Shown here: piece by piece, positions 25,584 to 46,178 of the stretch
How the letters are laid out: every line of letters begins with the position of its first letter
Numbering within the stretch: position 1 is the first letter of the stretch
Source of the DNA: a virus
Taxonomy: Duplodnaviria > Caudoviricetes
IMG/VR virus record: IMGVR_UViG_3300032216_000646
Coordinates: 1-64,000 of that record
DNA: 64,000 nt
Reading direction: 5' to 3' (one strand)
Position numbers and translations under genes: made by a program
The notes under the pieces: model-generated
Told to the model about the DNA's origin: nothing
The model's database searches: none
Seen by the model: only the letters and a program-made list of their open reading frames with translations

Positions 25584-25647
25584 TAGAACTCCTTCTATCA
25601 CTATCGACAATGCCAAACTTTTGAAGTTTTAGCAGGCTATTCTCGAT

Positions 25648-27758: not shown

Positions 27759-27793
27759 GTTTCATTCCTTTCGGTGTTCTTACTTATTGTCGT

Positions 27794-27958
27794 TTATTCT
27801 TTCGGATTACGCAGCCTGAACGTTATCATCCAGATTGCGAGAGAGCCGACGATACACCAGCCCACTACTGTCTTGGCAGAACCTTCAAGCACAACCCAAG
27901 CAACGAACATGCCTAGTAGTGTCCAAATCTGACCAATCAAATCATTTAGAAACTTCAT
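27794..27958 (-). CDS. Small two-TM membrane protein (54 aa)
   Basis: Manual translation MKFLNDLIGQIWTLLGMFVAWVVLEGSAKTVVGW...; TAATG coupling. Confidence 0.7.
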   Translation of the reverse strand: MKFLNDLIGQIWTLLGMFVAWVVLEGSAKTVVGWCIVGSLAIWMITFRLRNPKE

Positions 27959-28251
27959 TATTCTTTCCTTCTAGTAGAAGACGATGAACCACCAGCCGCT
28001 GCAGAAGCCGAAGCCGCTGCTGCAGTTGCAGCACTTTGCGCCGCCATAGTCGCAGCCTGTGCTGCGATTTGCGTCACGATAATGGCAGAGACCACCACCT
28101 TCTGTGCTTTTGCTCGCACTTCAGGTGGTAGGTCTGCACCAATGTTTGCCAAAGCACTAAGTGCGTCACCCAGTCCTTTGAAAAGGTCTCCCAACAGAGG
28201 TATTGCTAAAAACGGACTTGTTTCGTACTCTGGTGGGGTTACTGTTTTGGG
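27958..28251 (-). CDS. -1 frame C-terminal extension (putative membrane anchor) of the PA14 protein
   Basis: Frame opens exactly at slippery CCCAAAA; hydrophobic helix and RRKE end. Confidence 0.7.
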   Translation of the reverse strand, partial: PKTVTPPEYETSPFLAIPLLGDLFKGLGDALSALANIGADLPPEVRAKAQKVVVSAIIVTQIAAQAATMAAQSAATAAAASASAAAGGSSSSTRRKE

Positions 28252-29702
28252 TTAGGGACGAACTTTGCTCTTGCTTGCACCTTTGTTACAGGAGCAGGTT
28301 TTGTTACAGTTTTTTTAGTTGTTTTAGGTGCAGAGGTAGGTTTTGGAATAGCAGCCAACTCAGCCTTAGCAGTTACAAGGTCAGCCTCAAACTTGTCAAC
28401 TTCTCCAGCCTTGGCTTGGATGTTGTTGAATGTTACTGCAAACTGGTTTTTACGACCCGTAAGGATTGCATCTTTTTCAGCGTAAGCATCGCTATCAGAT
28501 TGCCAAGTAGCCTCAGCCGTAGCCAAAACAGCGTCTGCTGTATTGAGGGCAGATTGGGTTTGCCCTAATACTGATTGCTTATCCTGATACACCGCTACTG
28601 CCGCATCGTAATCATCCGCCTTGGTGTAATAGTTGCCTAAAGCGGTTTCTTCGGCGGCTACTGCGGAAACATAGTCTGCAGTCTTCTGGTCAAGGATGAC
28701 CTTGAGTGCAGGGTCTTTAGTTGTTCTTGCAACCGCTTGCTGAGTGAAGAACGACGCTGGGGCTACTGTCCACCCGTTACCGTTTACTGGTTGGTAGAAA
28801 AGCGTATTACACGCACCGCCACCCCATTCGTACATCCAAGCGTCAATAGCGTAAGACTGTCCACCAGTGAAGTTGAATAGGCTGGTGGCAAGACCACTAC
28901 AGCCCTTGAGAGTCCAATCGTTGATGACGTTCTGACCGTTGATTGACATGTAGAAACCATCATCAGCAGCAGCGTAGAACCACACTTGCTTGCTAGTTGG
29001 GTAAGTGATGTAACCACGGTAGTGAATCATTACATAGTCACCACCACAGCCTTCAATGTTTCCGTTACCCCAGTTTTTGTCAATGTTGGTTACAGTGATG
29101 GTCTTACAGAAGGTGTAAGCAGTGTCTGAACGAGTAGGTGGGTTTCCATTGCGGTTGATGCCCGTGTAGATGTCTGCCCGCAAACCAGAAGCAACTTGAC
29201 CGCCACCAGTGGTTACAGAACTGTTGTCATAGTTTGACTGAGCAGTGTTTACAGCATTCAACGCATTTGCGCTATTGGAGTTGGCGTTTTCATAAGCAGC
29301 ATAGGCTGCATCCACAGCATCAGAGGCTAAGGCTACTGCGTCAACAGCCGCATTGAAGTTGTCTTCAGCCGCACTTTGATTAGCAAAAGCAACATCATAA
29401 GCAGACTGTTTGCTGTCATAGTTAGCAGCCGCAGCGTCTAATGCTTCTTTGGCTAAGAACGCATCGTTTTGTGCCTGAGCCAAAAGTTGAGCGTCGGTGC
29501 TAGACGAGTTCTTCAACGCATCCAGTTGGGCTTGTGCAGTGTCTAACTGTGTTTGCACAGCAGCAATCTTTGCTTTGGCGGCTGCGACTTTATTGTTGTA
29601 GTCAGATGTACTGTCAGCCATTGCTGGTGAAGACATCATTAGGGGTAGGGTTAGTGCTAGGGTTGCTCCGAATAGTGCTGCGTATTTACGCAGTTTATTC
29701 AT
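28239..29702 (-). CDS. Secreted coiled-coil protein with PA14 domain
   Basis: Signal peptide (AMA-D); GLRADIY, ADDGF, INDW and YEWGGGA PA14 motifs. Confidence 0.85.
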   Translation of the reverse strand: MNKLRKYAALFGATLALTLPLMMSSPAMADSTSDYNNKVAAAKAKIAAVQTQLDTAQAQLDALKNSSSTDAQLLAQAQNDAFLAKEALDAAAANYDSKQSAYDVAFANQSAAEDNFNAAVDAVALASDAVDAAYAAYENANSNSANALNAVNTAQSNYDNSSVTTGGGQVASGLRADIYTGINRNGNPPTRSDTAYTFCKTITVTNIDKNWGNGNIEGCGGDYVMIHYRGYITYPTSKQVWFYAAADDGFYMSINGQNVINDWTLKGCSGLATSLFNFTGGQSYAIDAWMYEWGGGACNTLFYQPVNGNGWTVAPASFFTQQAVARTTKDPALKVILDQKTADYVSAVAAEETALGNYYTKADDYDAAVAVYQDKQSVLGQTQSALNTADAVLATAEATWQSDSDAYAEKDAILTGRKNQFAVTFNNIQAKAGEVDKFEADLVTAKAELAAIPKPTSAPKTTKKTVTKPAPVTKVQARAKFVPNPKQ

Positions 29703-32354: not shown

Positions 32355-32388
32355 AAAAATAAAAACCCCCCTACAGGAGGGGGGTTTT
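32355..32388 (-). terminator. Rho-independent terminator closing the RNA cluster
   Basis: AAAACCCCCC/GGGGGGTTTT stem plus T-tract. Confidence 0.8.
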
Positions 32389-32393
32389 AGTTT

Positions 32394-32559
32394 GAGTAGG
32401 TGGGTTGCGTTTTACCACCAATGCGTCGCCACCAGATTCTCTAGCGCTTACTCGCATACTTGCCGTTAGGTTATCAGCCCAGTTGATTAGACCCGACAAT
32501 GCTTTCTCCCTGTTGGCACAGAGATTCAGCCATACTCCAGCCTCTCCGTCGAGAGACTG
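32394..32559 (-). ncRNA. Structured ncRNA, possibly related to the GOLLD 3' domain
   Basis: GAGTA/TACTC closing helix, several internal hairpins, potential GCCAA/TTGGT pseudoknot; no credible ORF. Confidence 0.5.
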
Positions 32560-32563
32560 TTTG

Positions 32564-32853
32564 TGGACTAGACGGGATTCGAACCCGTGTCCTAACATTT
32601 CTTCTAAATACTTCTACATGCTTAGGCTTTACCAGCCACGGTCAAACAAAGGATAAAACAGATTATTGTTCTATTTATTTGAAACCTAACTGCCCACCTA
32701 GAACTAGTGCTTTGTTAGGGGCGCTCGCAGTTTTTAGGCTGCTAGTGCGTATGCGTTTTGAGTTGCATTTATTTTTTTACTCGATTCAAGAGTCACGAGC
32801 GTCTCTGCATGCTTCTATTCAGTTGTCAATGCCAGTCGATACCAAACTAGCCC
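32564..32853 (-). ncRNA. ssrA: tmRNA, tag (A)ATQNAYALAA
   Basis: GGGCTAG/CTAGTCC-A acceptor with G3.U; T arm ACGGG-TTCGAAT-CCCGT; tag ORF 32734-32766 after ATAAAT. Confidence 0.95.
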
Positions 32854-32962
32854 TAGGTTGCGGGACTTGCACCCGCCGTCCAAACCCCCTGTGATTGCTA
32901 TTGTGGTTTTCACCGTATAAATCACAGCACTGATTTGGTCAGTAGATTAGGTTAGCACACCT
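32854..32962 (-). ncRNA. Structured element with T-arm-like hairpin
   Basis: CCAAATC/GGTTTGG, CTGTGATT/AATCACAG and GGT-GAAA-ACC nested stems, then GCGGG-TGCAAGT-CCCGC. Confidence 0.5.
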
Positions 32963-32964
32963 TT

Positions 32965-33504
32965 TTAGGAAATGTCAATAACCTTTGGCTTTTTTTCTTC
33001 AGGAAGGTCTTTCTCGAAGGTAACAGTCAGCATACCATCTTTGACGGTTGCACCACTAATCTTCCAGAACTCTGCAACAGCCAGTTCCAACTTGAAGTCA
33101 CGGGCAGCGATGCCTTGGTAGACAATCTCACCTTCAGCCTTGCCGACCTTCTTGCCTTCAATGGTGATTACAGAATCCTGTAGGACAACACTCAACTCTT
33201 CCTTGGAGAAGCCAGCCACTGCTACGTTGAGCAGGTTGACGTCATCCTTCAAAGCGACAATGTCGTATGGAGGATAGGAAGGCTTGTTGTTGGTAACTTC
33301 TCTGAGAGTTTCAAGAAGTGGAGACCAGCCAATGGATAGGCGGTCTAGGCGGGGGAACAAGTCAGCAATAGTTACTGGCTTTGGAGGGACAGGCTTTTGC
33401 CATTTGTCCTTCTTGTTGTCCCACGGGTCATGTGGGTTTGGCTCATACGGGTTTGGATAAGGTTTCTTCCAACGGTCGTATGGGTCTAGTGGGTTGTGGT
33501 TCAT
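32965..33504 (-). CDS. Small heat shock protein (Hsp20/IbpA-like)
   Basis: YPPYDI, AVAGF, YQGIAARDF, DGML and PEEKKPKVI motifs; AAGGAG RBS. Confidence 0.92.
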   Translation of the reverse strand: MNHNPLDPYDRWKKPYPNPYEPNPHDPWDNKKDKWQKPVPPKPVTIADLFPRLDRLSIGWSPLLETLREVTNNKPSYPPYDIVALKDDVNLLNVAVAGFSKEELSVVLQDSVITIEGKKVGKAEGEIVYQGIAARDFKLELAVAEFWKISGATVKDGMLTVTFEKDLPEEKKPKVIDIS

Positions 33505-33605
33505 TGTTGTCTCCTTAGACGACAACTGTGCCTTGGTACATAACTGCCCGTAGCACAGTATTTTTTATGACACCCGATTGGCGTGTCTAAGAAGATTGTA
33601 GCAGA

Positions 33606-33884
33606 TTACTTGCGGAACTGGCGTCCTAGCGCACGGTGAATAGCGACACCACCAACGATTGCGCCAATACCCGCACCAATCGCCATAGCAGTGTGGTTAC
33701 CAGTTACATTCAAGGCTTCAACTGACTTCATCATGTTAGAGGTCGTGCCATCAATGTTGTTGATGTGCCAAGACATGTCTGGGACGCTCTTGAAAGTAAC
33801 AGGGCTTAGTTTGTCGCCAATGCCAGCACCGACTAAAGCGCCTATGCCAGATGCTCCAGCAACGAGTTGTTTCTTAGTAGCCAT
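33606..33884 (-). CDS. Glycine-zipper membrane protein ending LGRQFRK
   Basis: Two GxxxG-rich hydrophobic helices; GAGG RBS. Confidence 0.65.
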   Translation of the reverse strand: MATKKQLVAGASGIGALVGAGIGDKLSPVTFKSVPDMSWHINNIDGTTSNMMKSVEALNVTGNHTAMAIGAGIGAIVGGVAIHRALGRQFRK

Positions 33885-33930
33885 GATTACCTCACTTATT
33901 AGTCTCTATTTAGGATAAAGCAAAATGTCA

Positions 33931-34134
33931 CTAATCGAATAGTGAAACTTGCCCATTGTTGTGGCGTTCCTTGATGTGCAAGTTTAGGTTCTTGTCGTTC
34001 CAAAAGTTTGCAGGGCATGCAGGGCATGACAGGCTAGGGTAGATAGTTTTAGTGCCATACCCACTATCGTGCTGTTCTTCTTCAGGTAAATCGCCACCAT
34101 GCTGGTCTTTACCAAACTGTTCTTTGCTAATCAT
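33931..34134 (-). CDS. C2H2-like Zn-finger protein
   Basis: CPAC...F.....L..H....H. Confidence 0.6.
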   Translation of the reverse strand: MISKEQFGKDQHGGDLPEEEQHDSGYGTKTIYPSLSCPACPANFWNDKNLNLHIKERHNNGQVSLFD

Positions 34135-34136
34135 GC

Positions 34137-34460
34137 CTACTTCTTTCCAAAGTCTTTAGGAAGACCTAATGTTCTTGCCCATTTGAAACCTTTGTTACCG
34201 TAAGACGATTTCATAAGGTCTGGCGCAGGGATGCCTAACTCGGTGGCTTTCTGCACTGCAGTGTGATACATACCTGTAGCCACACCTTTACGTTGGTGTT
34301 CTTCATTCACACCCACGTGTATAGCCCCCTCGTTATCCCAAATCAATGCGCCAATCGCCCCATCCTCATTTGGATGGATAGCGTGGATGTTGTGGTCACC
34401 TGCTGGGTCTACAAAGTATTTATAGGTAACCCCTTCAAAAGCGGCTTTACTTCTAGTCAT
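34137..34460 (-). CDS. GNAT acetyltransferase
   Basis: V.EEHQRKGVATGMY motif A. Confidence 0.75.
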   Translation of the reverse strand: MTRSKAAFEGVTYKYFVDPAGDHNIHAIHPNEDGAIGALIWDNEGAIHVGVNEEHQRKGVATGMYHTAVQKATELGIPAPDLMKSSYGNKGFKWARTLGLPKDFGKK

Positions 34461-34783
34461 TTAAACACCACAGGTATGTGGGTCATACCAAGTTCTCTAG
34501 CAGCCATAACTCGATGATGACCCTCAGTAAGTAGAGTTTCACCGCTATCAAGTTTCGTTGCCTCTATTGGGTTTTTCAACCCTTGTGCAGCAATGTTTGC
34601 TTTTAGGTTTTCTACATAGTCGTCATCGTGAGCATCAAAGTTGGCGCAAGATTCGGCATCAACATGTTTCATGCGTATTGGGTTTGAGTGGTCGCCATCA
34701 TCATAATCAGAAGGAATAAACTCATTGACTTCAGACATAGGGACATCTACAGAGCCGTGGAAGTCTGCTTTATTTGCACCCAT
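34457..34783 (-). CDS. ParB/Srx-like domain protein
   Basis: GLKNPI...EGHHRVMAA...G..HIPV. Confidence 0.8.
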   Translation of the reverse strand: MGANKADFHGSVDVPMSEVNEFIPSDYDDGDHSNPIRMKHVDAESCANFDAHDDDYVENLKANIAAQGLKNPIEATKLDSGETLLTEGHHRVMAARELGMTHIPVVFK

Positions 34784-35538
34784 TAGTAAAGACTGCTCAC
34801 ATGTTGTTGTAGACGCTCATGCTCATGCTCTAGTTCGCCATGAGTGATGTCGTTGACGTGTTCGCCCATCTCGTCGATAGCACCGTGTGCTTCACCCATG
34901 TGGTGAGTGTGCCAATGAGACCCTTCTTCTAGGTTGTCTGCTTCATCAAGATTGTATTTGATTTTGTCGTGTAGACGCATAACGTGAGCAGTAACCTCAT
35001 CGTCTAAACCCGCAGCATGTGCTTTAGCAATGAACTCGTTCACATGTTCTTTTAGTTTATGAATAGTAGGTGGAGCGATTGGGTCCCAACGAGCATGGCG
35101 GTATTTGTCATCTGAAATGATGTGGTCATCAAACTTTTCGTTGCCTTCCCACTCACCGCCAACAGCCCTAGCCCACTTGTCCCCTGTTTTAGTGCGCATA
35201 GTTGAATGCACAGGTGCAGGTATAGAAGGGATGTCTTCATGAAGTTCACCAGCAAACTTGTATAACTTAGTGGCTAACCCTTGACGACGCATCTCAGGGT
35301 GAGTCTCGATGTGTTGGATGCGACCCTTTTCATCCAGACCCATAGTGCCAACAAAGTTGTCGTCAGCATCGTGCATAGTAAAGTTGTGCGCAGAAGTTCC
35401 AAAACCCATACGACCGTGATGGTATTGGATAGAGTGCGTAGCCCCATTATCGTCAGTGACCTTCCAAGCCATAAGCATCTTATGGTCAGGATGTTCACCC
35501 GCTTGAATCTTAGTAGGGTCGTTTTCTACAACAGCCAT
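34783..35538 (-). CDS. GNAT acetyltransferase with His-rich helical C-domain
   Basis: ETHPEMRRQGLATKLY. Confidence 0.8.
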   Translation of the reverse strand: MAVVENDPTKIQAGEHPDHKMLMAWKVTDDNGATHSIQYHHGRMGFGTSAHNFTMHDADDNFVGTMGLDEKGRIQHIETHPEMRRQGLATKLYKFAGELHEDIPSIPAPVHSTMRTKTGDKWARAVGGEWEGNEKFDDHIISDDKYRHARWDPIAPPTIHKLKEHVNEFIAKAHAAGLDDEVTAHVMRLHDKIKYNLDEADNLEEGSHWHTHHMGEAHGAIDEMGEHVNDITHGELEHEHERLQQHVSSLY

Positions 35539-36083
35539 TACCTTGCTCCTTCAAACTCTTGGAAGTTACCTGGGTGGACTATCGATGGATGGTAGTCGTA
35601 ATCTTCTTCGTGAAGTCTAGTGTCCATGTGTAGAGGTGCGCCTACACCCTTTTGCTTATTAGACGCTTCACTTCCACGGGTATGCACCATCACTGGAATG
35701 TGAGTAACTCCTGCTTGCAGAGCCGCCGCAAGACGGTGGTTACCTTCAGTAAGAACACCCCAACGTAGATTGTGGTCATAGTTTAGATGAACAGGTTCTC
35801 TGAGTCCGTCTATACCGTGAGTAGATAAGTCGTTAGCGATGTTGTTGATGTTCTCTTTGCTGTTAGCGTAGCCTTGAGCGCCCGTACGGTCATACTCTTT
35901 ATAGCGCATTAGTTGATGCACAGGGACGAGAGCAACATAACGATTCCACTTATACCCTGGCTCATCACCTTTTAGGCTGCCGTTATCTGCGATAGCGTGA
36001 GTTCGCCATCCGCCGTTTTCATGAGTAGCAAGACCTGGACCCGTATAGGTAGGAACAGATGCAAACTGTTTACCAATGTCCAT
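35538..36083 (-). CDS. ParB/Srx-like domain protein
   Basis: EGNHRLAAALQAGVTHIPV. Confidence 0.8.
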   Translation of the reverse strand: MDIGKQFASVPTYTGPGLATHENGGWRTHAIADNGSLKGDEPGYKWNRYVALVPVHQLMRYKEYDRTGAQGYANSKENINNIANDLSTHGIDGLREPVHLNYDHNLRWGVLTEGNHRLAAALQAGVTHIPVMVHTRGSEASNKQKGVGAPLHMDTRLHEEDYDYHPSIVHPGNFQEFEGAR

Positions 36084-36643
36084 TAGAACCTCTTATCTAG
36101 TTGAAGACCGATTGCACCAGCAGCACACTCGTCACATTGACCGTTATAGCCCTTTTGGTGTTCAGTCAAGTAAATACCATGCCTGTCCATCCAGTGACCA
36201 TCACGGTAATGGCTTTGAGGAACATCTGCAACGATTTTGGTGACCCTAAAGCCATCAGTGCTACTTACTTCGTTTTCTGGACTTGGAAACTTTTCTGCTT
36301 TAGAAACAGGCTCTACTTGGTATGCGTAGGCTCGTTTTTCTTTTGTAGGTCGCACTTGCTCTGCTCGAACGGCATACGACATTGCATGCCTAGCATTTTC
36401 AGAAGATACGTATCCAGTGACTGGAACTACCCATGCTCTAGGTTGGTGCGCTCTAGGGTCATCTTTTGCATCGCCTAAACCGTAGACACCACCGTGGCTA
36501 CCAGATTGAACCAAACTGTCGCCATTTGGTTTGATGAGGTCTCCAACATTTAGTCTTTGATTAGTGCCGTGTAGGTAGATAGTGTTGCCGTCACTAGGTT
36601 CGTGGTTTCTACCTGCAAAGAAGTCGGTAGTATTCCTAGTCAT
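36083..36643 (-). CDS. Arr-like ADP-ribosyltransferase-fold protein
   Basis: YLHGT...GDLIKP, YQVEP, S..GFRV pattern. Confidence 0.65.
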   Translation of the reverse strand: MTRNTTDFFAGRNHEPSDGNTIYLHGTNQRLNVGDLIKPNGDSLVQSGSHGGVYGLGDAKDDPRAHQPRAWVVPVTGYVSSENARHAMSYAVRAEQVRPTKEKRAYAYQVEPVSKAEKFPSPENEVSSTDGFRVTKIVADVPQSHYRDGHWMDRHGIYLTEHQKGYNGQCDECAAGAIGLQLDKRF

Positions 36644-37109
36644 TTACTTCCCTAATCTGTCGGGTTTTAGGATGCTTCACAAAAACTTCGGCTTCATCAG
36701 GGCTACCAATAGCCACAATGTCAGACCTAGGCACTTCCCACTCATACGTCTTCTCAGGTGGGTTAGATTGGAATGCTTTCCAAGATTTCCAGTTTGGATG
36801 CAACGAAACATTAGTGACGCCCTTCTTAGGCATGCCAGTGCGTCTAACTGTCACTGTGTCGCCTAAGCCAGAGTGGTGAAGAATGTGCTGCACCATTTCG
36901 TGGTGTTCTTCTGCTGGCGGTGAATCTTTTTCCATTACATCTTTGATGTATTCAATAGGATACCTGTGACTGCCGACGGTTGTGGAGTTACCGTAAACAA
37001 AATGCTCAAGTGCTGGTTCGCTGTCCATCATGCCAGCGTGATAGTCATAGTTCTCTTCAGAAAGATGTTTGAAGGCAGCAGCATCAAACTCTGATTTACG
37101 TCCAGCCAT
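36636..37109 (-). CDS. Putative R-S-E type ART-fold protein
   Basis: VRR.G, NVSL and EAEVFV motifs; start re-set to ATG 37109. Confidence 0.55.
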   Translation of the reverse strand: MAGRKSEFDAAAFKHLSEENYDYHAGMMDSEPALEHFVYGNSTTVGSHRYPIEYIKDVMEKDSPPAEEHHEMVQHILHHSGLGDTVTVRRTGMPKKGVTNVSLHPNWKSWKAFQSNPPEKTYEWEVPRSDIVAIGSPDEAEVFVKHPKTRQIREVND

Positions 37110-37660
37110 TAGATGACACCTGAACCTGAACATGTATGACACTTTTTGACCTGAGACATAGTGAACTCTTCATCGTAGTTCTCTAGGCGATGCCAGTGAC
37201 GGTCTAAGTCTTTATTGTCTACGCCATTACCGCCACACATTGGGCAGTGACCTGCACGAGTGTCATACTTCTCAGGCAAACCATTGATGCCACCCTTCCA
37301 TGGAATCTCCATGTTCGGGTCAATGTCGTGTGCGGCAGCGATACGGTGGTGTCCGCCCATAACCCATGCTTTGTCAGGGGTAGGGAATACAATCGCTACA
37401 GGCGCACGAACACCATGCTTTTTGATGCTGTCGTATAGGGAGTCGTTATCTTGACCGTAACCACCAAAACTGGTGCTTTTAGATGCGCCAAGTTTCTGAG
37501 GCATGATGTCTTTATCTTGGTCAACGTTGTCAGCAAACTCGACGTTAGGGTTACCCATAAGGTCACCTACACGGATAGTGCCTCTAGCGTTAGTCATTTG
37601 CTCTTGATACTTCTCAAAGTGTGGTTGGAACTGTCGTCCCATGTTCTCTGGGCTAGTCAT
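37109..37660 (-). CDS. ParB/Srx-like protein with C-terminal CxxCxGxG Zn finger
   Basis: SIKKHGV..PV...GGHHRIAAA. Confidence 0.8.
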   Translation of the reverse strand: MTSPENMGRQFQPHFEKYQEQMTNARGTIRVGDLMGNPNVEFADNVDQDKDIMPQKLGASKSTSFGGYGQDNDSLYDSIKKHGVRAPVAIVFPTPDKAWVMGGHHRIAAAHDIDPNMEIPWKGGINGLPEKYDTRAGHCPMCGGNGVDNKDLDRHWHRLENYDEEFTMSQVKKCHTCSGSGVI

Positions 37661-38085
37661 TAGTTATCCTTCTGTAGAGGCAACATCATTTCCCACATAG
37701 CACCACGCATAGCGTAAGTGGAGTTTGAAACTTTGTGAGTTGGCGGCTGAATCGTGCCGCCTTCAGATTTGACTACCGCTCTCGCCCAAGAGTTTCCAGA
37801 TGGGGTGCGAGAACTAGCATGCTTAGGGGCAGGGATAGATGGGTCTTTTTCGCTGGCGGATTTAGCGTAGTTGTAAAGAGCGGTTGCGATTCCTTGGCGA
37901 CGAACTTCTGGACGAGTTTCAACCTGCACGATAGTTCCATGCTCATTCAAGTTCAAATGACCTAAAAGGTTTCCACGCTGGTCTCTCATCTGAAAGGCGT
38001 GATGAGGGTTGCCATCTCTGTCTACGTGAGGTAGGTAAGTGATTGTGTGAGCAAACTGCTGACCAATGTTTTCTGGGCTAGTCAT
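37660..38085 (-). CDS. GNAT acetyltransferase
   Basis: ETRPEVRRQGIATALY; paralog of 34783-35538. Confidence 0.8.
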   Translation of the reverse strand: MTSPENIGQQFAHTITYLPHVDRDGNPHHAFQMRDQRGNLLGHLNLNEHGTIVQVETRPEVRRQGIATALYNYAKSASEKDPSIPAPKHASSRTPSGNSWARAVVKSEGGTIQPPTHKVSNSTYAMRGAMWEMMLPLQKDN

Positions 38086-38501
38086 TATGCGTTCATTTCT
38101 TTAGGTGGGTGATACCAGTCTCGTTCTTCAGAAGTTACCTCACCAGTTTCTGGGTGAATACTGGTCTTGTGAACCTTGTATAGGTTGACTTTTGCTCCCG
38201 CTTTCAGGGTTACCTCAGACTCTGCGTCGTTGTGACCTTCATCGTAGACTTTCAACTTGCTAAGTCTGTCAGCGTCAGTCTCAACTTGGCTACCATCGAT
38301 TTCTGCCTCAAGAACATGCCCAACTTCAGATGGGTATGCTCGATTAGCGCCTAGGCTAAACTTTTCAGCAACATCACGGTCAGTAGTCCAGTGAGCGCCT
38401 AATCCTTGATTAGATGGGCTATCTAGCCCCATGATGGCGTGACCGTTCATTCCACGGTAAACCTTGATGAACTGCTGCCCTACTAGGTGTTCGTTAACCA
38501 T
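38085..38501 (-). CDS. Putative ART-fold protein (R..ExE type)
   Basis: VYRG, HWTTD..VA..F and ESEV motifs. Confidence 0.7.
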   Translation of the reverse strand: MVNEHLVGQQFIKVYRGMNGHAIMGLDSPSNQGLGAHWTTDRDVAEKFSLGANRAYPSEVGHVLEAEIDGSQVETDADRLSKLKVYDEGHNDAESEVTLKAGAKVNLYKVHKTSIHPETGEVTSEERDWYHPPKEMNA

Positions 38502-38985
38502 TGCACTTCCCACATTCGTATGAATACCCCTCGTGACTATCTACAGAGCCGTCAGGGTTTACTGCATTGTGCTTTACAGAGTAATGACTATAGATTAGGT
38601 CTTCAGGCTTCTCTTTTTCACCAGGTAAGGTTTTAGTTCCCATAAAATACCGTTTGCTACCTTCGAAAGGCTCATCTGACCAAGTTTCTTCATTTTTCAT
38701 AGGAGTGGACTTCACTACTGTAAAACCTTTTCCACTAGTAACTACTTGCCCTTTGGAAACGACAGAAAGAGTGTCATCGTTTTCAATCGGCTTTACTTCA
38801 TGAACGTAACCATCTTCACCAGCGTAGCCACGTGCCACTTCTGGGTGGGGAGTAGCAAACGCTTCAGGTTCATCTCCTGAACCATGTAGTTGGTGTGGGT
38901 TGACTGTGCCTCCTAGTTTGATGAAGTTAGGAGAGCCGTGAAAAAGACGCTCAAACTGTTGCCCAATGTCTTCTGGTCTAGCCAT
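38494..38985 (-). CDS. Arr-like ART-fold protein
   Basis: LFHGS, AFATP...A..YA and VHEVKP motifs. Confidence 0.7.
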   Translation of the reverse strand: MARPEDIGQQFERLFHGSPNFIKLGGTVNPHQLHGSGDEPEAFATPHPEVARGYAGEDGYVHEVKPIENDDTLSVVSKGQVVTSGKGFTVVKSTPMKNEETWSDEPFEGSKRYFMGTKTLPGEKEKPEDLIYSHYSVKHNAVNPDGSVDSHEGYSYECGKCNG

Positions 38986-39364
38986 TTGGACAGTCCTCCT
39001 CTTTATGCCAATGTAACTCGCCCTCGGCAGGCACGTGACCTACACGGGTAATAAGATGCGGTGGAACTCGTGTTTCAGAATAAGAAGCGTCATCTTCAAG
39101 CCATGGGTCTTCATACATGTGTTGAACGGGGATGTGAACTTGATAAATGTCATGGTTAGGGTAGCCCGTGCCTTTGCCCGTCACGTGGTTTACCGAGTCA
39201 ACACCGTTGTAGACGTAAACACCACGAGGAACGTCGCCTTCTTCATGCACATAAGTGCCTTTAGGCGTAGGAAACAGCCCAGTTTTCTCAATAGAGTCTC
39301 TATGCTTCTTTGGGGCGAAGTGGAAGCCCTGACCGTTATAGAAGTCAACATTATTTCTAGTCAA
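38978..39364 (-). CDS. Tpt1/KptA-like ART-fold protein
   Basis: FH.A......SI...GL.P, GVYVY and VPPHLI motifs; TTG start 39364. Confidence 0.6.
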   Translation of the reverse strand: MTRNNVDFYNGQGFHFAPKKHRDSIEKTGLFPTPKGTYVHEEGDVPRGVYVYNGVDSVNHVTGKGTGYPNHDIYQVHIPVQHMYEDPWLEDDASYSETRVPPHLITRVGHVPAEGELHWHKEEDCPNG

Positions 39365-39965
39365 TGTAGTTGATTCCAATCGGCATCTGGGGGAAATGCT
39401 TGCGGGCAATCGCCAAGGTAGTCAAACCACCAGTAACTACAGGGTTTCCGTCGTTCCAGCGGACGTCTATTTTTGGCTGTTCAACGCCCGACGTGTATTT
39501 TTCGATTAAATCTCGGCTGCGCTTAGTTACGTTGTTGCGGTAGTGGGTTTCGAGCATCGAGGCTACTTGGGGCGCACCTAACCGTTTGACGGCGTAACGG
39601 GAAGCGTCAGGGTTTGACGGGATGATGTGGGTAGAAATGATGTGTGTGTAAGGTAACTCTTGCGGACGATAGGCGTTATGTGGGGGTGTGGTCTCTTGAC
39701 GGCTCTTACCAGTCACATCTTTAGTTATCGTGTGGACGTGTTTATCCATGTAAGTGTATTTAGACACTTGATTTACAGGATGCGGGTGGTATCCAGCGAA
39801 CTCTTGGGTAGAACTACTGTTACGAGTCTTAGGACTCAAGTAACCGCAGGTAGGACATTCGAAATGGTAAGACACCTGTGTAGGTAAACCACGGTGATTG
39901 TATGGACACTGTGTAGGTGTGTCACGACGAGGGCGACCAACTTGTCCCATAAAACCACCTGCCAT
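39357..39965 (-). CDS. Zn-finger plus degenerate ParB/Srx-like protein
   Basis: CPYNH...CPTC; PKIDV...VVTGGLTTLAIA replaces GHHR. Confidence 0.5.
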   Translation of the reverse strand: MAGGFMGQVGRPRRDTPTQCPYNHRGLPTQVSYHFECPTCGYLSPKTRNSSSTQEFAGYHPHPVNQVSKYTYMDKHVHTITKDVTGKSRQETTPPHNAYRPQELPYTHIISTHIIPSNPDASRYAVKRLGAPQVASMLETHYRNNVTKRSRDLIEKYTSGVEQPKIDVRWNDGNPVVTGGLTTLAIARKHFPQMPIGINYID

Positions 39966-40071
39966 CTAACTATCTCGACCACTGTGACCGCACGCCGCCA
40001 GTCAAAAGGTTCAAATACTAGTGTGCCATTCGGTCGTTGGTTTTGTAGGCTAACCGCTGTAGGATTATTGT

Positions 40072-40605
40072 ATGCCTGAACCAGTCATCGTAACCATCCC
40101 AGAACTACTAATCCGTCAATGCGCCATGCTAGGTGTTGAACGTTGGCTACAAAAGAAAAGCAGCGAAGACAAAGAGTCATACGCAGACGGACGCAAAAAA
40201 GGTTACCTCGAACATGACCTCCTCAACAGTGTGAGAGCCAACATCTCCGAATGGGCTGTCGCCCAACACTACGGTCTCGCATGGAACGGTGGAATCACCT
40301 ACACCAACGACCAACACGGTAAACGTCGCTACCTGCCCGACGTAGGAACGAACCTAGAGGTTCGGACACGTCGCACAGGTGGAGAGTTTGCTTTTTGGAA
40401 GTATGAAACCGAAAAGACAGGTTTCGCCGTGTTCACCGAAATAGTGGATGACAACACCTTCGAAGAAGTGCGCATCCTCGGCTGGCTGCCAATCAGCGAA
40501 TGTAGCCACCCCGACTATTGGGCTGCAGCCAACCGCCGCTACTATGTGCCTGCCTCTGCCCTAAATGACCCTCGTGACTTAGCGGCAGATGGTTTTCTAG
40601 GCTAA
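40072..40605 (+). CDS. Hypothetical protein, possibly nuclease fold
   Basis: TAGGAT -10 six nt before ATG; E..VA...PDVG..LEVRT pattern. Confidence 0.65.
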   Translation: MPEPVIVTIPELLIRQCAMLGVERWLQKKSSEDKESYADGRKKGYLEHDLLNSVRANISEWAVAQHYGLAWNGGITYTNDQHGKRRYLPDVGTNLEVRTRRTGGEFAFWKYETEKTGFAVFTEIVDDNTFEEVRILGWLPISECSHPDYWAAANRRYYVPASALNDPRDLAADGFLG

Positions 40606-41845
40606 CCTCTCTCTCTCTCCCTCTCTCTAGCCAAAACGACCCTTTTGGCTCATTTGCCGCACCCTAACCCTTTGGCTACTGCCTCCAGTAGATACCCTCA
40701 ACCATGTCTCCGCTCTGGGGGTGACCTGCGCACGGCTTCGACCGAAGGTGGGGGGGTCGGCGGATGGGCTGTCGGATGGCTGACGGACGATGGGCGAGTG
40801 CGAATCCTAGTGGTCGGCTGACCACCTGACAAGTAGTGAGGGGGGAATCGTTATACAACCGTGACTTTGGCTACTGCATCCGTCAGATTGGCGGTCGTGA
40901 AACCGCTTCCAAAGTATTAGCCACCACCCTCCACTGTTATCAGGTGTGAACCCAGTGTTTACGAGGGTGTCAGGTGGCACGAGGCTCGTAGGCGGGCTTT
41001 CACCATGTAGGTGGTGTGATTGGACGTTTTAGGGGGGTCAGACCCTCCTAGGGGCATCCTGTGGCGTTTTAGAGGGGGTGGCTGGTCAGCCAGTTGGAGG
41101 CATGTATAACAATCGTATAACGATGCCATTTACCTATTGACAGGACAGCCAACTTATGGTAGCGACCCCAAAAGTCACAGTTTGATAACAATCTCTCCCT
41201 CTCTCTTGACTTATCTCTCTCTATGTGCATCTAACCCTCTACCTGAACTTGAATGTTCAGGGGGGGTGACCCCCCCTGTGACCCCCCTATAACGATTTGG
41301 TAACGCCTATTGTGCGACAGGCGGTTTTATGGTATTTCGCACGTGTGCGCATGCGCCTGCGCTCGCACACCCAGATAAAACTGACCAAAACAATCGTTAC
41401 CAAAACGTTACCATTTGCCTCTGTCGGAATGTCCTACGGATGTGCAAGACTGGGGGGGTCGGCAACCCGCACCCACACGCACGTGGTCGGAGGCGCTGGC
41501 AGACCCCCCGTGCGGGCGGGTCGCAGGTGAGTGGATTCGCCTGCGATGCCACCCCCGCACCTACCGCAAGGTGACCGCCTCCCCGCAAGGGCTAGGGTCG
41601 GGGGTCGAGGCTCACGAACCGCCACTGACCGTGATAACTCCATAGTGACTACGAAACACACATACAGGATTCCGACACCAGCCACGAAGTAGGCGCATCA
41701 TGCGCCGATTCCAGTTGCAACAAGGTTCAGCCTCTCCATCGACAGGACGATGGCGTGGCTGGTGTCGACCCTCCTGTCTCTGACCGCTTATCGGACACCA
41801 GCGCTCCCCCCGCTGGTGTCCGTTGAGTTGCCAGAGGCAACTCGA

Positions 41846-41861
41846 TGTTTCACGTGAAACA
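41846..41861. promoter_or_regulatory. parS centromere-like site
   Basis: Exact TGTTTCACGTGAAACA palindrome. Confidence 0.85.
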
Positions 41862-41907
41862 TTGCTCAACCTGCTCCATCAACCCAAGAACGTGAGTGTG
41901 ATAACCC

Positions 41908-43254
41908 ATGACATACGCAACCATCATCAAGTCGGCACACAGTGCCTCACTGCCACGAGAGACCGTGGTAATCGCAACGCCATCAGGCGTCCGTGCATTC
42001 ACCCGCACCAACAACGGTGCGAGGGGTGCATCCAACAAGTGGTCGGTCGGCTCACCAGCCAACGCCGACCTCGAACTGGTCTACGGTCAGCCAGTGTCTC
42101 TGGCACTGACTGCCACTGACCTTGCCGAACTGGACTCTGCTCCATCGCACACTGGCTACCCTGCCAACATGCTCCAGCGTCTAGGTCGTGCCATCCGCAC
42201 AGAGGTCGCACTGACCTCGACCAAACTGGTCGACCAGTTGGCAACCGTCTGGCATCTAGCCGAAACGGACGCCGACTCACTGGGTCAATACGTCAAGGGT
42301 CAGACAGTGGCATCCGTGCCGACCATGTCTGCTCCGACCGTGGTTGCCTCCGTGGTGACTGCTCCGAACGTGCCAGTTGCATCGGCATCCGTCAGCCAGT
42401 CCGTCAGCGGTTCAGCGCCAGTCGCATCGAACGCATTGCGCATCCCGCAACTGACAGAGCCAGAACTTGCGGGCTACATTGACCGTGTGTTCGGCAACAA
42501 GAAACGCACTGGTGTCGAACTGCTCGACCACGCTCGCAAGGTCGGATTCAACGTCCGCATCGAGGGTCACGCAGGCACTGGCAAGACCACGTTCACCCGC
42601 TACTATGCGGGCATGCGAGGTCTCATTCACGTTGCTATCCCATGCTCCCCGCAGACCGACTCACTGGACGTGCAGGGTGGCTGGGTGCGTGACTCGTTAG
42701 GTGGCTGGAGATTCCAACTCTCTCCATTCGCAGAGGCGATTCAGCAACCGTCAGTGATTCTGCTCAACGAGGCGAACCGCATGCCATCCAAGGGTCAAAA
42801 CATGTTCTTGCAGGTTCTGCAGGAGCGCCGACTGACCTTGTCGACCTACGACAACAGCGTCATTGAGGTTCACCCTGACTGCCTAATCATTGCCGACCTG
42901 AACGCTGGTCGGCAATACGTAAGCACGAACGCACTTGACCCTGCATTCGTTGACCGATTCAAGTTGCCAATCGTGTTCGGTTACGACCGTGACATCGAGG
43001 AGAAACTGGTCAAGTCCAAGACCCTGCTCGACTTCGCATGGAACGTGCGCAGTCAGCCACAGGTCTACAGAGACACCCCTGTCTCTGTCCGCATGTTGAC
43101 TGCATTCGAGGCGAACGCCATCGGGTTGCAGGACATCAGCATCGCCATCGAGGTGTTCGCAAACGCATTCACCAACCCAATCGAGCGTGACAGCATCCGC
43201 ACCGCTCTTGAGGCGGAGGCATTCCGCATTGAAACCGACCTAGGCATTGCCTAG
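41908..43254 (+). CDS. MoxR/CbbQ/CobS-type AAA+ ATPase
   Basis: GHAGTGKT, ILLNEANR, ALDPAFVDRF and SVR motifs. Confidence 0.9.
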   Translation: MTYATIIKSAHSASLPRETVVIATPSGVRAFTRTNNGARGASNKWSVGSPANADLELVYGQPVSLALTATDLAELDSAPSHTGYPANMLQRLGRAIRTEVALTSTKLVDQLATVWHLAETDADSLGQYVKGQTVASVPTMSAPTVVASVVTAPNVPVASASVSQSVSGSAPVASNALRIPQLTEPELAGYIDRVFGNKKRTGVELLDHARKVGFNVRIEGHAGTGKTTFTRYYAGMRGLIHVAIPCSPQTDSLDVQGGWVRDSLGGWRFQLSPFAEAIQQPSVILLNEANRMPSKGQNMFLQVLQERRLTLSTYDNSVIEVHPDCLIIADLNAGRQYVSTNALDPAFVDRFKLPIVFGYDRDIEEKLVKSKTLLDFAWNVRSQPQVYRDTPVSVRMLTAFEANAIGLQDISIAIEVFANAFTNPIERDSIRTALEAEAFRIETDLGIA

Positions 43255-43276
43255 GTCACGAGGAGAAACGATAACC

Positions 43277-45316
43277 ATGAACGAACTAATCATCCGTGAG
43301 AGCGTCCGTGACGCTCAATCCGAATACGCACAGCGTTGGGCATCGGTCGTTGCGAAGTTCGCAACTGCACTGACTGGTCAGCGCATCGACTGCTCACTCT
43401 CTGCAGAGACCATCGCACCAGCGTGGTCAAGTGAGTCGAGCATCTGGCTATCAGAGCCAACCTTGCCTGACCTCCAGACCACACACGGTGTGTTGGTTGC
43501 CAAGGGTCTGGCACTGCACGAACTGGGTCACATCCTGTTCACCCCTCGCAACGCAACCCAGTGGAGACGCACCGTCAACGCAGAGGGTCTAGGCGAGGCG
43601 ATGAACATCCTTGAGGACATGCGACTTGAGTCATTGCTGGTCGCACGTCACCGTAGCAGTGTCTCACCATGGTTGTCGGCGCTTATCCTGCACTACCTGC
43701 TGGACGATGCCAAGACCATCCCGCTTGCATTCCCTTTGATTCATGGGCGCAAGTTCTTGCCACTGGCAGTCCGTCAGGACGTCCGTGACGCCTACGAACA
43801 CCAGCACATCGTGCCTGACCTCGTGCGCATCATTGACGCCTACCGCAAGGTAGTTCTGCCTCGTGACACTGACCTGTCTCTCGACCTCATTCGTGAGTTC
43901 AAGCAGGTTCTTGACTCTGTCAAGCCGACTGGCTCTGGCACTGGCAACGGTGGCACTGGCGAGGGCGAGGGTTCAACCAGCCAGCCACCGCAGGGTGGAT
44001 GCGGAGTGCCTAACCCGAACCACCCGACTGGTCGACCAGAGTCCTACGACTCTGACCCTGACCACGCACCTCTGTCCAACAAGGAGCAGGAGCAGTTGAC
44101 TGACCGCATGGACGAGACCACAGAGGGTGGCGAGACTGACGAGTCACCTGCCAAGGACAAGGACGAGTCCGCAACAAACAACCAGCCAGCCGATGCAGAT
44201 GATGCTGACGCCGATGGTGACGATGCGGATTCTGACGGAGGCGATTCATCCGACAGTGACTCCGACAGTGACGCCGATGACGATTCTGATTCAGATTCAG
44301 ATTCGACCGATGGCGGTTGCACACTAGGTGGCTCGACCGATGGTGACTCCGATGGCGATGCTGACGGTGACGCCGATGGCGATGCTGACGGTGACAACGG
44401 TCAGCCAACCGACCAGCCAACCGACAAGGGTGGCAAGGGTGCAGGTCAGGACGATGGCTCACAGCCAGCGCCTACCAGCCTGCAGGACGCACTGGACGCC
44501 ATTGCCTCGACCCTGTCTGACGCCATTAGTCAGGTGCAGGAGCAGGTAGGTCTGTCACCTGACCTCCAGTCAGTTGACAACGTGTTCGCACAGCCTGCCG
44601 ACTACAACGAGGTCAAGATGGATGACCCGAAACTGGGTCACGCATCCATCACCATGGCGGAGGAGTTGGAGCGCCTACGTGCCGAACACGAGCCTGCATG
44701 GGAGCGTGAGACCCGCACTGGACGCCTCAACGTTGGACGCCTAGTCAACAACGAGGACACCGACCTACCATTCGACCGCTGGAACGATGGTCAGGACGAT
44801 GTCACCGCAGTCGAGGCAGTTATCATCCTCGACAACAGCGGGTCGATGGCTGGCGAACGTGCCACCAACGCCTACCGTTCGATGTTCGCTCTCAAGAGTG
44901 CGCTCGACATGCTGGGCGATGCACGTTGCACCGTGTTGACATTCAACTACCGTGCGCACCTGCTCTATGGTGCGGACGAGGTTGCAGGCTCAACCATCCG
45001 TGACGCAGGCGCATCAGGTGGCACGAACGCACACGATGCCATCGCCTATGCGACCAACGTCCTTGCCAAGTCAGAACAGCCAATCAAGTTGTTCTTTGCC
45101 ATCACCGATGGTGACTGGTCGGACGCCAACCGTTCGGATGAACTAATCGGCAAGTTGCGAGACGCTGGTGTCCTCACCGCCATCGCACAGGTCGGTGGCG
45201 GTTCAACCAACGACCACGGATGCGAGGTCTACAGCGATGTCAACAACACCGCCGACCTCCTCGTCCTAGGTCGCAAACTGGTCAACCTCGCAGTTGACCG
45301 CAACCTCGCTCGCTAG
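43277..45316 (+). CDS. HExxH + acidic linker + VWA protein (CobT-like)
   Basis: LHELGH, NILEDMRLE, DNSGS MIDAS, GGT and ITDG motifs. Confidence 0.9.
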   Translation: MNELIIRESVRDAQSEYAQRWASVVAKFATALTGQRIDCSLSAETIAPAWSSESSIWLSEPTLPDLQTTHGVLVAKGLALHELGHILFTPRNATQWRRTVNAEGLGEAMNILEDMRLESLLVARHRSSVSPWLSALILHYLLDDAKTIPLAFPLIHGRKFLPLAVRQDVRDAYEHQHIVPDLVRIIDAYRKVVLPRDTDLSLDLIREFKQVLDSVKPTGSGTGNGGTGEGEGSTSQPPQGGCGVPNPNHPTGRPESYDSDPDHAPLSNKEQEQLTDRMDETTEGGETDESPAKDKDESATNNQPADADDADADGDDADSDGGDSSDSDSDSDADDDSDSDSDSTDGGCTLGGSTDGDSDGDADGDADGDADGDNGQPTDQPTDKGGKGAGQDDGSQPAPTSLQDALDAIASTLSDAISQVQEQVGLSPDLQSVDNVFAQPADYNEVKMDDPKLGHASITMAEELERLRAEHEPAWERETRTGRLNVGRLVNNEDTDLPFDRWNDGQDDVTAVEAVIILDNSGSMAGERATNAYRSMFALKSALDMLGDARCTVLTFNYRAHLLYGADEVAGSTIRDAGASGGTNAHDAIAYATNVLAKSEQPIKLFFAITDGDWSDANRSDELIGKLRDAGVLTAIAQVGGGSTNDHGCEVYSDVNNTADLLVLGRKLVNLAVDRNLAR

Positions 45317-45338
45317 TCGAGCGGGGTTGCTCCCAACG

Positions 45339-45382
45339 ACTGGCTGGCATCGGGCTTATCACACTCACCGATGCCAGCCAGT
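45339..45382 (+). terminator. 15-bp perfect hairpin after the VWA gene
   Basis: ACTGGCTGGCATCGG/CCGATGCCAGCCAGT. Confidence 0.6.
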
Positions 45383-45497
45383 TCTCACATCCGTCACATC
45401 ATCCGTTAGACCTGTCTCATCCTTCGTTCAGAACTTTCTCTGGCAAGGGCAACCCGCAACAAACAAATCCATCAACGCTAAAGGAGCGTGGTAACCC

Positions 45498-46178
45498 ATG
45501 ACAATCAACCATCGACCAGCAGGCTCGCCTGCCTCTAACCAATACGGACAGTTCACCGTCCGCTACGCATCACCAGCGCAACAGCGATTCATCGCCAAAC
45601 TGCTGGACGAACGTGACCACACGCTGGGCGCACTTGACCCAGCGACCGTGAACGTTCAGAACGCCTCCAGCATCATCGACCAGTTGCTGGCATTCCCTAT
45701 CCGTGCCGACAAGGTGGTCTACGCCTCTGACAAACAGCGAGCGTTCATCACCTCGCTCCGTGAGTCCAAGGTCAACGGTGGCATCATCGTGGACGAGGCG
45801 CTCGCCAAGTTCGGTGTGACCCTCGACCAGATAACCTCCACGCAGGCACGTAACCTCATTGACCGCCTGCTGGTGGCTCAATCCATCCCCAAGACCGTCA
45901 GGGTCGAGGTGGGCGCTTACATGCACAAGGGCGTGGTCTACAGCGTCCGCAGAGGCACACAGTCGGGCAACCTCAACGCATTCCAGTGGAATGGTGACGC
46001 ATGGGTCTACGCTGGCGCAGTCAAATACGCCATCGAGCCATCGGAGCGCCTAAGCCTCATGGATGCGATGAACTTCGGAGCAGGCACAGGCGTCTGTGTC
46101 CACTGCGGTCGAACCCTGACCGACCCTGACAGCGTTCGATTCGGCATCGGCTCAACCTGTCGCAAGAAATACAACTAG
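45498..46178 (+). CDS. DUF6011-type Zn-finger protein
   Basis: CVHCGRTLTDPDS...GIGSTC. Confidence 0.8.
   Translation: MTINHRPAGSPASNQYGQFTVRYASPAQQRFIAKLLDERDHTLGALDPATVNVQNASSIIDQLLAFPIRADKVVYASDKQRAFITSLRESKVNGGIIVDEALAKFGVTLDQITSTQARNLIDRLLVAQSIPKTVRVEVGAYMHKGVVYSVRRGTQSGNLNAFQWNGDAWVYAGAVKYAIEPSERLSLMDAMNFGAGTGVCVHCGRTLTDPDSVRFGIGSTCRKKYN

Follow-up and report, generated by a model that had tools for sequence, protein, structure and literature searches.

A shared N-terminal leader peptide on stand-alone effector-type enzymes in a hypervariable gene array of an uncultured actinophage-like myovirus

Background

The diverse internal proteins of phage T4 share only a capsid-targeting sequence, and the genes encoding this cargo are hypervariable among close relatives (PMC3012670). 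The targeting sequence is MKTYQEFIAE (PMC8442874). Another group of predicted cargo comprises the polyvalent proteins, whose commonest domains include ADP-ribosyltransferase (ART), GNAT acetyltransferase and ParB-like domains (PMC5512222, Iyer et al. 2017). Solo versions of these domains are found in phages beside late genes, and polyvalent proteins as well as solo forms are predicted to be packaged and deployed from the capsid (PMC5512222). Similarly, approximately 44% of phage ARTs occur in contexts that suggest packaging (PMC9503650). Here we describe an array of 14 genes (g01 to g14) that occupies positions 33606 to 39965 of the minus strand in the first 64 kb (64,000 nucleotides, the window) of the virus record IMGVR_UViG_3300032216_000646. 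Most genes of the array begin with the same kind of leader peptide, 7 to 12 residues in length, although the proteins adopt unrelated folds.

Phage proteins that travel with the DNA set the first minutes of infection, and outside T4, P1, N4 and a few others they are not recognisable from sequence. Solo ART, GNAT and ParB genes of phages are already known (PMC5512222). A limited literature search turned up no report, outside the T4 group, of an exchangeable N-terminal leader common to such solo proteins. The record that contains the array is a complete virus genome of 95,750 bp with direct terminal repeats, and the phage is uncultured.

Results and discussion

Forms and distribution of the leader

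The leader occurs in several forms. Type A conforms to M-T-S-P-E-N-x-G-[QR]-Q-F, and a short version reads M-D-I-G-K-Q-F. Type B conforms to M-[TG]-[RA]-N-x-x-D-F, and type C, which is seen in relatives, to M-S-A-x-D-N-L-S-x-E-L-F. The forms have the ending [QDE]-[FW] in common. A first-pass annotation of the window had proposed that unrelated enzymes of the array begin with the same short peptides, sorted into two tags (A and B). Every tag that it quoted is present in the sequence as written, and the same leader is indeed carried by proteins with ART, GNAT and ParB folds. The tags also proved to be terminal, confined to the array and strongly conserved in homologues.

When the whole 95.7-kb genome is translated in six frames, the core of tag A, [ILVM]G[QKR]QF, appears seven times; shuffles give an expectation of 0.49 (maximum 3). 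Six of the seven lie within the array, and five of them are N-terminal. With crude gene calls, tag A heads 5 of the 14 array genes and none of 132 others, and the tag B pattern heads 5 of 14 and 1 of 132. Strict leader patterns, which were derived from the array's own tags and from the sets of homologues, are found at the start of 8 of the 14 genes in the array and of none of 138 outside it (Fisher p = 5e-10). When 81 distinct N-termini are aligned on the aromatic residue at the end of the leader, this residue is F or W in 76, it is preceded by Q, D or L in 67, and the initiator Met lies 6 to 11 residues upstream.

Two further copies of the tag A core were observed away from gene starts. The C-terminus of g14 (positions 33606 to 33632, with the motif match at 33629) carries the core, and its coding DNA, GGACGCCAGTTCC, matches the g06 leader at 12 of 13 bases; this copy could be functional, or it could be left over from the start of a downstream gene that has been lost. 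Outside the array, IGQQF occurs just once, in a 305-amino-acid DUF7178 protein encoded beyond the window, at genome positions 64583 to 65500 on the minus strand. There the string is internal, at approximately residue 55, and uses the same codons as g03; it is probably an unrelated chance occurrence.

Conservation and exchange of the leader

Stand-alone homologues of g04 from other samples keep the leader at 26 to 40% identity, and in these proteins it immediately precedes the catalytic [YH]RG. Their starts include type A forms (MTSPENVGQQF, MTSPENLGRQF, MSPENVGQQF and MDVGKQF), type B forms (MGRNKADF and MTRNNADF) and the type C form MSAQDNLSxELF. Among six homologues of g08, with 56 to 94% identity, the leader residues D7, F8, F9 and G11 are invariant. 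The 32 homologues of g06 are especially informative, since orthologues switch leader type as they diverge: the start is MTSPENMGRQF at 99% identity, MTLNPNQF at 79%, MGANHKDF at 68%, MAANNSAF at 64%, MGANNGDF at 50% and again type A, MTSPENVGQQF, at 40%. Since orthologues of a single gene can carry either, types A and B represent one signal in two interchangeable forms. The tags of the first-pass annotation are therefore real, but instead of two separate addresses they are better regarded as a single family of leaders, the variants of which (A, short A and B, and C in relatives) can replace one another.

The Gly, Gln and Phe codons of the tag differ synonymously between copies, which indicates that selection acts on the peptide. 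This bears on the possibility that the shared starts are a start cassette at the level of DNA or RNA, serving translational coupling and providing a homology handle for cassette shuffling, with no function for the peptide. Six array genes start with the 8-mer NTG-RCT-AG (minus-strand starts at 34460, 36643, 37660, 38085, 38985 and 39364), which provides a start codon in frame 0 together with a stop in each of the remaining frames (TGA and TAG); in four cases, one of these two stops terminates the gene upstream. Moreover, around their starts g05 and g06 agree almost completely over approximately 25 nucleotides, the Arg codon at position 3 is AGA or AGG in 3 of 3 cases compared with 22% genome-wide, and the leader swaps among orthologues require recombination at the boundary between leader and domain. 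However, the conserved core (G-Q-Q-F or D-F) lies downstream of ATGRCTAG and varies synonymously, the same peptides recur in homologues of less than 30% identity from other samples, three peptide types occupy one position, and coupled genes elsewhere in the genome have no leader. We judge it improbable that a cassette alone explains the shared starts. As a side feature the cassette is real; it is more plausibly an effect of the leader, or an additional use of it, than the reason the leader exists.

Another question is whether the leader acts within its own enzyme, as an autoinhibitory propeptide or a first strand, or as a substrate that is acetylated at its N-terminus by the co-encoded RimI-like GNATs. 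The structural model of g04 (see below) fits the first idea in that the leader F opens strand 1, which bears the catalytic Arg. As to the second, T, S, A or G at position 2 allows removal of Met and N-acetylation, and most leaders have one of these residues there. The GNATs of polyvalent proteins have been assigned to the RimI-like clade (PMC5512222). Yet the same leader is present on three unrelated folds (ART, GNAT and ParB), the GNATs themselves included, nothing connects it with an active site in the ParB or GNAT proteins, and internal copies of the domains work without it. An intramolecular role thus seems very unlikely.

These internal copies are instructive in another respect. Where g04-type domains are embedded in polyvalent proteins, the motif upstream of the domain is TDWDxxYPxLPxxxHRG, and no leader is present. 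In the g04 model, residues 1 to 7 are disordered, a further sign that the leader lies outside the domain. The idea that the leader is a linker in polyvalent proteins, or a site for their cleavage, was rejected, given this other upstream motif and the near-total absence of leader patterns from the giant proteins. The comparisons show a peptide that is under selection, independent of fold, exchangeable between variants, confined to the island and in need of a free N-terminus. As a sequence feature, the leader is well established.

A likeness to the sliding-clamp-binding motif was also set aside. Some small ParB-like homologues of g06 (P0087-P0104) start with MSAHEHINNKQLSLF or MSNLGRQWQQLDMY and match the QLSLF clamp-binding consensus exactly or nearly (...KQLSLF and ...QQLDMY). 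Hda carries this consensus at its N-terminus (PMC5397184). However, the ParB domain of the g06 homologues begins with L-[SD]-[LM]-[FY]-x-x-A-[RK]-E-L, so the matching string appears to be a composite of the leader end and the domain start. Because of this, and because types A and B have no hydrophobic residue before the F, the likeness was judged a coincidence.

Genes and domains of the array

The 14 genes had been described at first pass as tightly packed and mostly coupled, with five ART, three GNAT and four ParB/Srx-like domains. All of the open reading frames exist, and 11 of the 13 junctions overlap, by 1 nt (six junctions), 4 nt (one) or 8 nt (four); the other two are small gaps. Starts were corrected for g02 (TTG at 39364), g04 (ATG at 38501) and g07 (ATG at 37109). 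There is one catalytic domain per gene, to which g06 adds just a zinc ribbon. The GNAT count held in full, whereas the ART and ParB counts held in part.

The g04 gene (38085 to 38501) encodes a 138-amino-acid protein with the type A leader MVNEHLVGQQF. Sensitive searching yielded 52 relatives, and an alignment of 32 sequences was built. In this alignment R16, G17, G35, H37, W38, E94 and E96 are invariant, and across the family R16, H37-W38-T-T and E94-x-E96 are invariant or conserved. An AlphaFold2 model based on the alignment has a pLDDT of 79.4 and a pTM of 0.75, and ARTs make up nearly all of its top matches by Foldseek and by an independent all-against-all aligner (VIA). The Rhs toxin TreX ranks first (Z 8.1, 99 residues, root-mean-square deviation 3.5), and the next are bacterial R-S-E ADP-ribosylating toxins, Scabin and PARPs. 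The predicted structure confirms that g04 has an ADP-ribosyltransferase fold of the R-S-E type. Stand-alone g04-type ARTs also have a conserved C-terminal tail, R-T-R-T-Y-N-P-P-[RK]-E-M-K-A, which in g04 reads WYHPPKEMNA (38085 to 38123).

Two other proteins are probably Arr-like, H-type ARTs, as suggested by weak profile and structure matches. The first, g03 (38494 to 38985), has 163 amino acids and the type A leader MARPEDIGQQF; the second, g08 (36083 to 36643), has 186 amino acids and the type B leader MTRNTTDFFAG. Over its YLHGT...VGD stretch, g08 matches Pfam Arr-ms below the cut-off (E = 0.012), and its family profile matches the rifampin ADP-ribosyltransferase 2hw2 with E = 0.71; the AlphaFold model of the single g08 sequence has a pLDDT of 34.5. 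No direct Pfam or PDB sequence match was found for g03. Its nearest cluster in an Atlas structure search is the Arr-ms family (TM 0.46), an Atlas search by features returns PARP and Arr clusters, and hhalign aligns it with the g08 family over the YxVEP...GF region (E = 0.01). A phmmer search of g03, g04 and g08 against PDB sequences gave nothing useful.

For the remaining two proposed ARTs, g02 and g07, no ART fold or motif was recovered from Pfam, PHROG, NCBIfam or hhalign, or from Atlas for g07. The g02 gene (38978 to 39364) encodes 128 amino acids with the type B leader MTRNNVDF, and its TTG start overlaps the g01 stop by 8 nt. This protein has no family match in Pfam or NCBIfam, an H-type ART was suggested by eye only, and its alignment with the g08 family profile covers the leader alone (hhalign E = 7.6e-5, 15 columns). 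The g07 gene (36636 to 37109) encodes 157 amino acids with a weak type B leader, MAGRKSEF. It has no family match, Atlas returned only unnamed viral clusters, and hhalign found no match to the g04 family.

The three GNAT domains are supported by Pfam scores slightly above the cut-offs. The g05 protein (37660 to 38085; 141 amino acids; type A leader MTSPENIGQQF) matches Acetyltransf_1 with 23.7 bits (cut-off, 20.7), and g12 (34137 to 34460; 107 amino acids; type B leader MTRSKAAF), a minimal GNAT, matches the same family with 23.2 bits. The third, g10 (34783 to 35538; 251 amino acids), matches Acetyltransf_10 with 24.2 bits (cut-off, 23.6), has a histidine-rich helical C-terminal extension and begins MAVVEND..., which is no clear leader. 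These proteins are mutual paralogues (g05 versus g10, E = 3e-27), and the acetyl-CoA motif R/Q-x-x-G-x-A is present in them as RRQGIA, RRQGLA and QRKGVA.

Three proteins appear to be ParB-like on the basis of weak profile hits, mutual paralogy and a [DEG]G[HN]HR motif. The g06 protein (37109 to 37660; 183 amino acids; type A leader MTSPENMGRQF) matches ParB families of PHROG, is a paralogue of g11 and ends in a CxxC zinc ribbon. The g09 protein (35538 to 36083; 181 amino acids; short leader MDIGKQF) matches PHROG 3147 (E = 4e-9) in addition to ParB PHROGs. The g11 protein (34457 to 34783; 108 amino acids; type B leader MGANKADF), a minimal ParB-like domain, matches Pfam ParB_N (E = 4e-4) and NCBIfam parB_part (E = 3e-5). 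Every ParB profile match is below its cut-off, and the ParB_N scores are 20.8 and 14.6 bits compared with a cut-off of 26.3. The fourth proposed member, g01 (39357 to 39965; 202 amino acids), is the first gene of the array and has a zinc-ribbon-like N-terminus and no leader. It has no Pfam, PHROG or NCBIfam family, the ParB motif is absent, and its blastp match to g06 is at chance level (E = 3.1), so the ParB assignment is unsupported.

The array ends with two small genes. The g13 gene (33931 to 34134) encodes 67 amino acids with the short leader MISKEQF and a possible C2H2 zinc finger (weak match to Pfam zf-C2H2_4, E = 0.013). The g14 gene (33606 to 33884) encodes a glycine-zipper, membrane-like protein of 92 amino acids (Pfam Gly-zipper_Omp, E = 2.5e-4) with the C-terminus ALGRQFRK.

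Kinship with polyvalent proteins

Approximately 20 of the g04 relatives are giant proteins of 590 to 3,000 amino acids, one of which has 12 matched stretches. Other domains of the g04-bearing giants (1,200 to 2,700 amino acids) are matched by g05, g10, g12, g09 and g11. Mycobacterium phage IkeLoa has a 575-amino-acid protein of the Bxz1 gp83 type in which residues 109 to 179 match g04 and the neighbouring segment, residues 185 to 317, matches g09/g11; identity over the second segment is 31% with g09, and the ParB segment is 41% identical to g11. The gene for this protein is located two genes upstream of that for the portal. Because its domains are homologous to fused copies, the array is an unfused form of the polyvalent repertoire, which agrees with the earlier description of an unfused, modular set of enzymes in so far as g04, the GNATs and the ParB-like proteins are concerned.

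A complete relative with a diverged array

A search with the DNA pattern of the type C leader retrieved four IMG/VR contigs, one of which (G001) is complete at 94,728 bp. Its capsid protein and terminase are 83% and 81% identical to those of the present phage. In the corresponding place, with the late block on one side and the divergent early region on the other, G001 has an array of approximately 21 minus-strand genes, which encode three g04-type ARTs, an H-G-S protein, two Pfam-supported GNATs and ParB-like proteins. Leaders head 8 of these 21 genes and 0 of 135 others (p = 3e-8). The array proteins are 27 to 55% identical to their matches here, so the island is hypervariable, while the class of leader and the position are kept. 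Divergence of this extent, when the head genes keep more than 80% identity, is expected of arms-race cargo. The island is thus a hypervariable, fast-evolving accessory set of stand-alone enzymes of polyvalent effector types with modular leaders.

Other searches did not extend the group of close relatives. IMG/VR gave none when searched with g08, g09, an AAA ATPase, the homologue P0025 or the long tag A DNA pattern. A metagenome scan with P0025 and a scan of genome contigs with the protein P0026 gave no match. The tag A pattern had one match in a metagenome, in a spurious frame of a bacterial contig, and this was taken as chance. GenBank phages contain no match to the array DNA, g04, P0016 or P0026, and thus no cultured phage with the g04 family was found.

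Genomic setting

The minus strand of the window also encodes the tail sheath, capsid protein, portal and large terminase. The capsid protein is 61% identical to its counterparts in Streptomyces phages LuckySocke, Alone3 and BRock, and the genes of the head block follow the order portal, putative scaffold, capsid. The gene between portal and capsid matches no Pfam family, and the corresponding LuckySocke protein bears the annotation scaffolding protein. In LuckySocke, Alone3 and BRock, the region upstream of the terminase gene holds tRNA arrays rather than the present gene array, which was not found in the BRock or LuckySocke relatives.

Directly 3' of the array (32362 to 33525) are an Hsp20 gene, a transfer-messenger RNA (tmRNA) and a terminator. 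The Hsp20 gene (32965 to 33525, minus strand) matches Pfam HSP20 with E = 4e-14. The tmRNA (32563 to 32853, minus strand) is detected by ARAGORN and Rfam (121 bits), is 290 nt in length and encodes the tag ATQNAYALAA. The terminator (32362 to 32388) is strong and bidirectional, with an 11-pair stem followed by a T-run. The array, Hsp20 gene and tmRNA form one apparent transcription unit that ends at this terminator. In G001, the array has no Hsp20 or tmRNA neighbours and adjoins a gene for an endolysin with CHAP and peptidoglycan-binding domains. Because a CHAP endolysin stands there where Hsp20 and tmRNA stand here, neither neighbourhood is diagnostic.

Several other features flank the island. 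Between the array and the terminase gene, at 27231 to 29702, are genes for an M23 peptidase (175 amino acids) and a 487-amino-acid PA14-domain protein. The first gene on the other side, 40072 to 40605 on the plus strand, encodes 177 amino acids and matches no family. Its product is 28% identical to that of G001 positions 25545 to 26039 (minus strand), a gene that lies within the G001 array and on the array strand, and therefore the boundary of the island shifts between relatives. Approximately 1.3 kb at the start of the plus-strand early region (40600 to 41900) has no convincing open reading frame, and the G+C content climbs to 55 to 59% over positions 40001 to 46000, compared with 47% elsewhere.

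Possible roles of the leader

The leader is probably an address label, which would bring all of the array enzymes to one common partner. Our best guess, held tentatively and by analogy with T4, is that it serves in virion loading: it would load the enzymes into the assembling head, from which they would enter the next host with the DNA, and it would probably stay on rather than be removed by a prohead protease. This possibility is favoured by the kinship with polyvalent proteins, by the T4-like pattern of variation in the population and by the requirement that every separate polypeptide have its N-terminus free. A broader proposal, that the leader family [D/E]-N-x-[G/S]-x-Q-F, together with the short and type B forms, is a protease-independent address for capsid cargo across a group of uncultured actinophage-like myoviruses, is possible but somewhat doubtful.

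Several observations speak against virion loading or are neutral. The array lies 10.7 kb upstream of the terminase gene, albeit on the strand of the late block, and starts at the divergent early region; its layout with Hsp20 and tmRNA is also compatible with early host-takeover genes. The first-pass annotation had emphasized that the array is on the virion-gene strand. It does share that strand, but because approximately 11 kb separate it from the terminase gene and a terminator follows the array, Hsp20 gene and tmRNA, the strand is weak evidence of late expression. Searches of the complete genome revealed no prohead protease of the S78, S77 or ClpP type; the best sign of S77 is a sub-threshold match of 12.7 bits, and an unrecognised protease is possible. 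Since, in addition, leader ends have no [LI]-x-E, the part of the T4 model that concerns cleavage has no support. A motif related to the leader is absent from the head proteins of this phage, and the giant polyvalent homologues do not start with a leader. Co-folding of the capsid protein and the putative scaffold with g04 gave a score of 0.00 (mark, 0.32), which weighs neither way.

Alternatively, the enzymes could be early or middle proteins for host takeover or anti-defence that act inside the cell, as do T4 ModA and ModB, and the leader could dock them to some other common partner. The partner might be a chaperone, such as the apparently co-transcribed Hsp20, or a hub protein of the host; it might also be a protease, or an adaptor, by which the enzymes are destroyed at a set time. 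The residues F, W and L are bacterial N-degron residues, and the leader always ends in one of them, so cleavage before this residue would expose an N-end-rule residue. The evidence that the peptide is functional is equally compatible with docking, and the failure to find a prohead protease suits it, as do the start of the array at the early region, the apparent unit with Hsp20 and tmRNA, and the terminator ahead of the late genes. However, the link to Hsp20 is not conserved, because the G001 array abuts a CHAP endolysin gene and has neither Hsp20 nor tmRNA. Also, the array draws its domain families from polyvalent proteins, for which delivery together with the DNA is predicted, and hypervariable cargo in which only a leader is conserved is the pattern of T4 internal proteins (PMC3012670). 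We regard docking as unlikely, though a serious rival to virion loading.

Conclusions

The leader is defined on enzymes of three unrelated folds, in one hypervariable island of two complete genomes and in numerous homologues from metagenomes. Should it prove to be a loading signal, the principle of T4 capsid targeting would extend to a distant lineage without a recognised prohead protease, and the solo and polyvalent forms of these enzymes would be linked, in that each solo gene needs a label and the fused forms lack one. The effectors that such phages inject could then be recognised directly from genome sequence, and the leader might serve as a means of packing foreign proteins into their particles. 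If it is instead a signal for docking or timing, it still marks a co-regulated set of effectors. Either way, it provides a sequence handle for fast-evolving genes of counter-defence or host takeover in uncultured actinophages, and a defined peptide that can be tested at the bench.

MuF-fused toxins and head-associated ARTs (PMC9503650) resemble the array proteins as enzymes that are predicted to travel in the head of contractile-tailed phages. In contrast to them, the array proteins lack a MuF domain and are not fused to a head protein, and their genes are not adjacent to those for portal or terminase. Polyvalent proteins have the same repertoire of ART, RimI-like GNAT and ParB-like domains, to which those of the array are homologous. 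However, the array consists of separate, small, coupled genes with their own leader, which fused copies lack, and its proteins do not have the defining polyvalent trait of at least two effector domains per polypeptide. Furthermore, the typical ART of polyvalent proteins is of the H-Y-D type (PMC5512222), whereas the g04-type ART is R-S-E.

In its proposed function, the array comes closest to the capsid-targeting system of T4. The T4 internal proteins differ from the array proteins in that the leaders described here have no [LI]-x-E site and are accompanied by no recognised prohead protease. The present phage is an actinophage-like myovirus with the order portal-scaffold-capsid and several interchangeable leader types. 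The T4 targeting sequence, with Q-E-F at residues 5 to 7, resembles MDIGKQF, MISKEQF and MAGRKSEF in length and in the Q/E-F core ([QE]-[EQ]-F near residue 7), a likeness that is a lead and not a test. In both systems, an N-terminal peptide of approximately 10 residues is common to otherwise unrelated proteins, and the leader is kept while the cargo is hypervariable (here, 27 to 55% identity in the array compared with 81 to 83% for capsid protein and terminase). Both also include an ADP-ribosyltransferase among the cargo or candidate cargo: Alt in T4 and g04 in the array.

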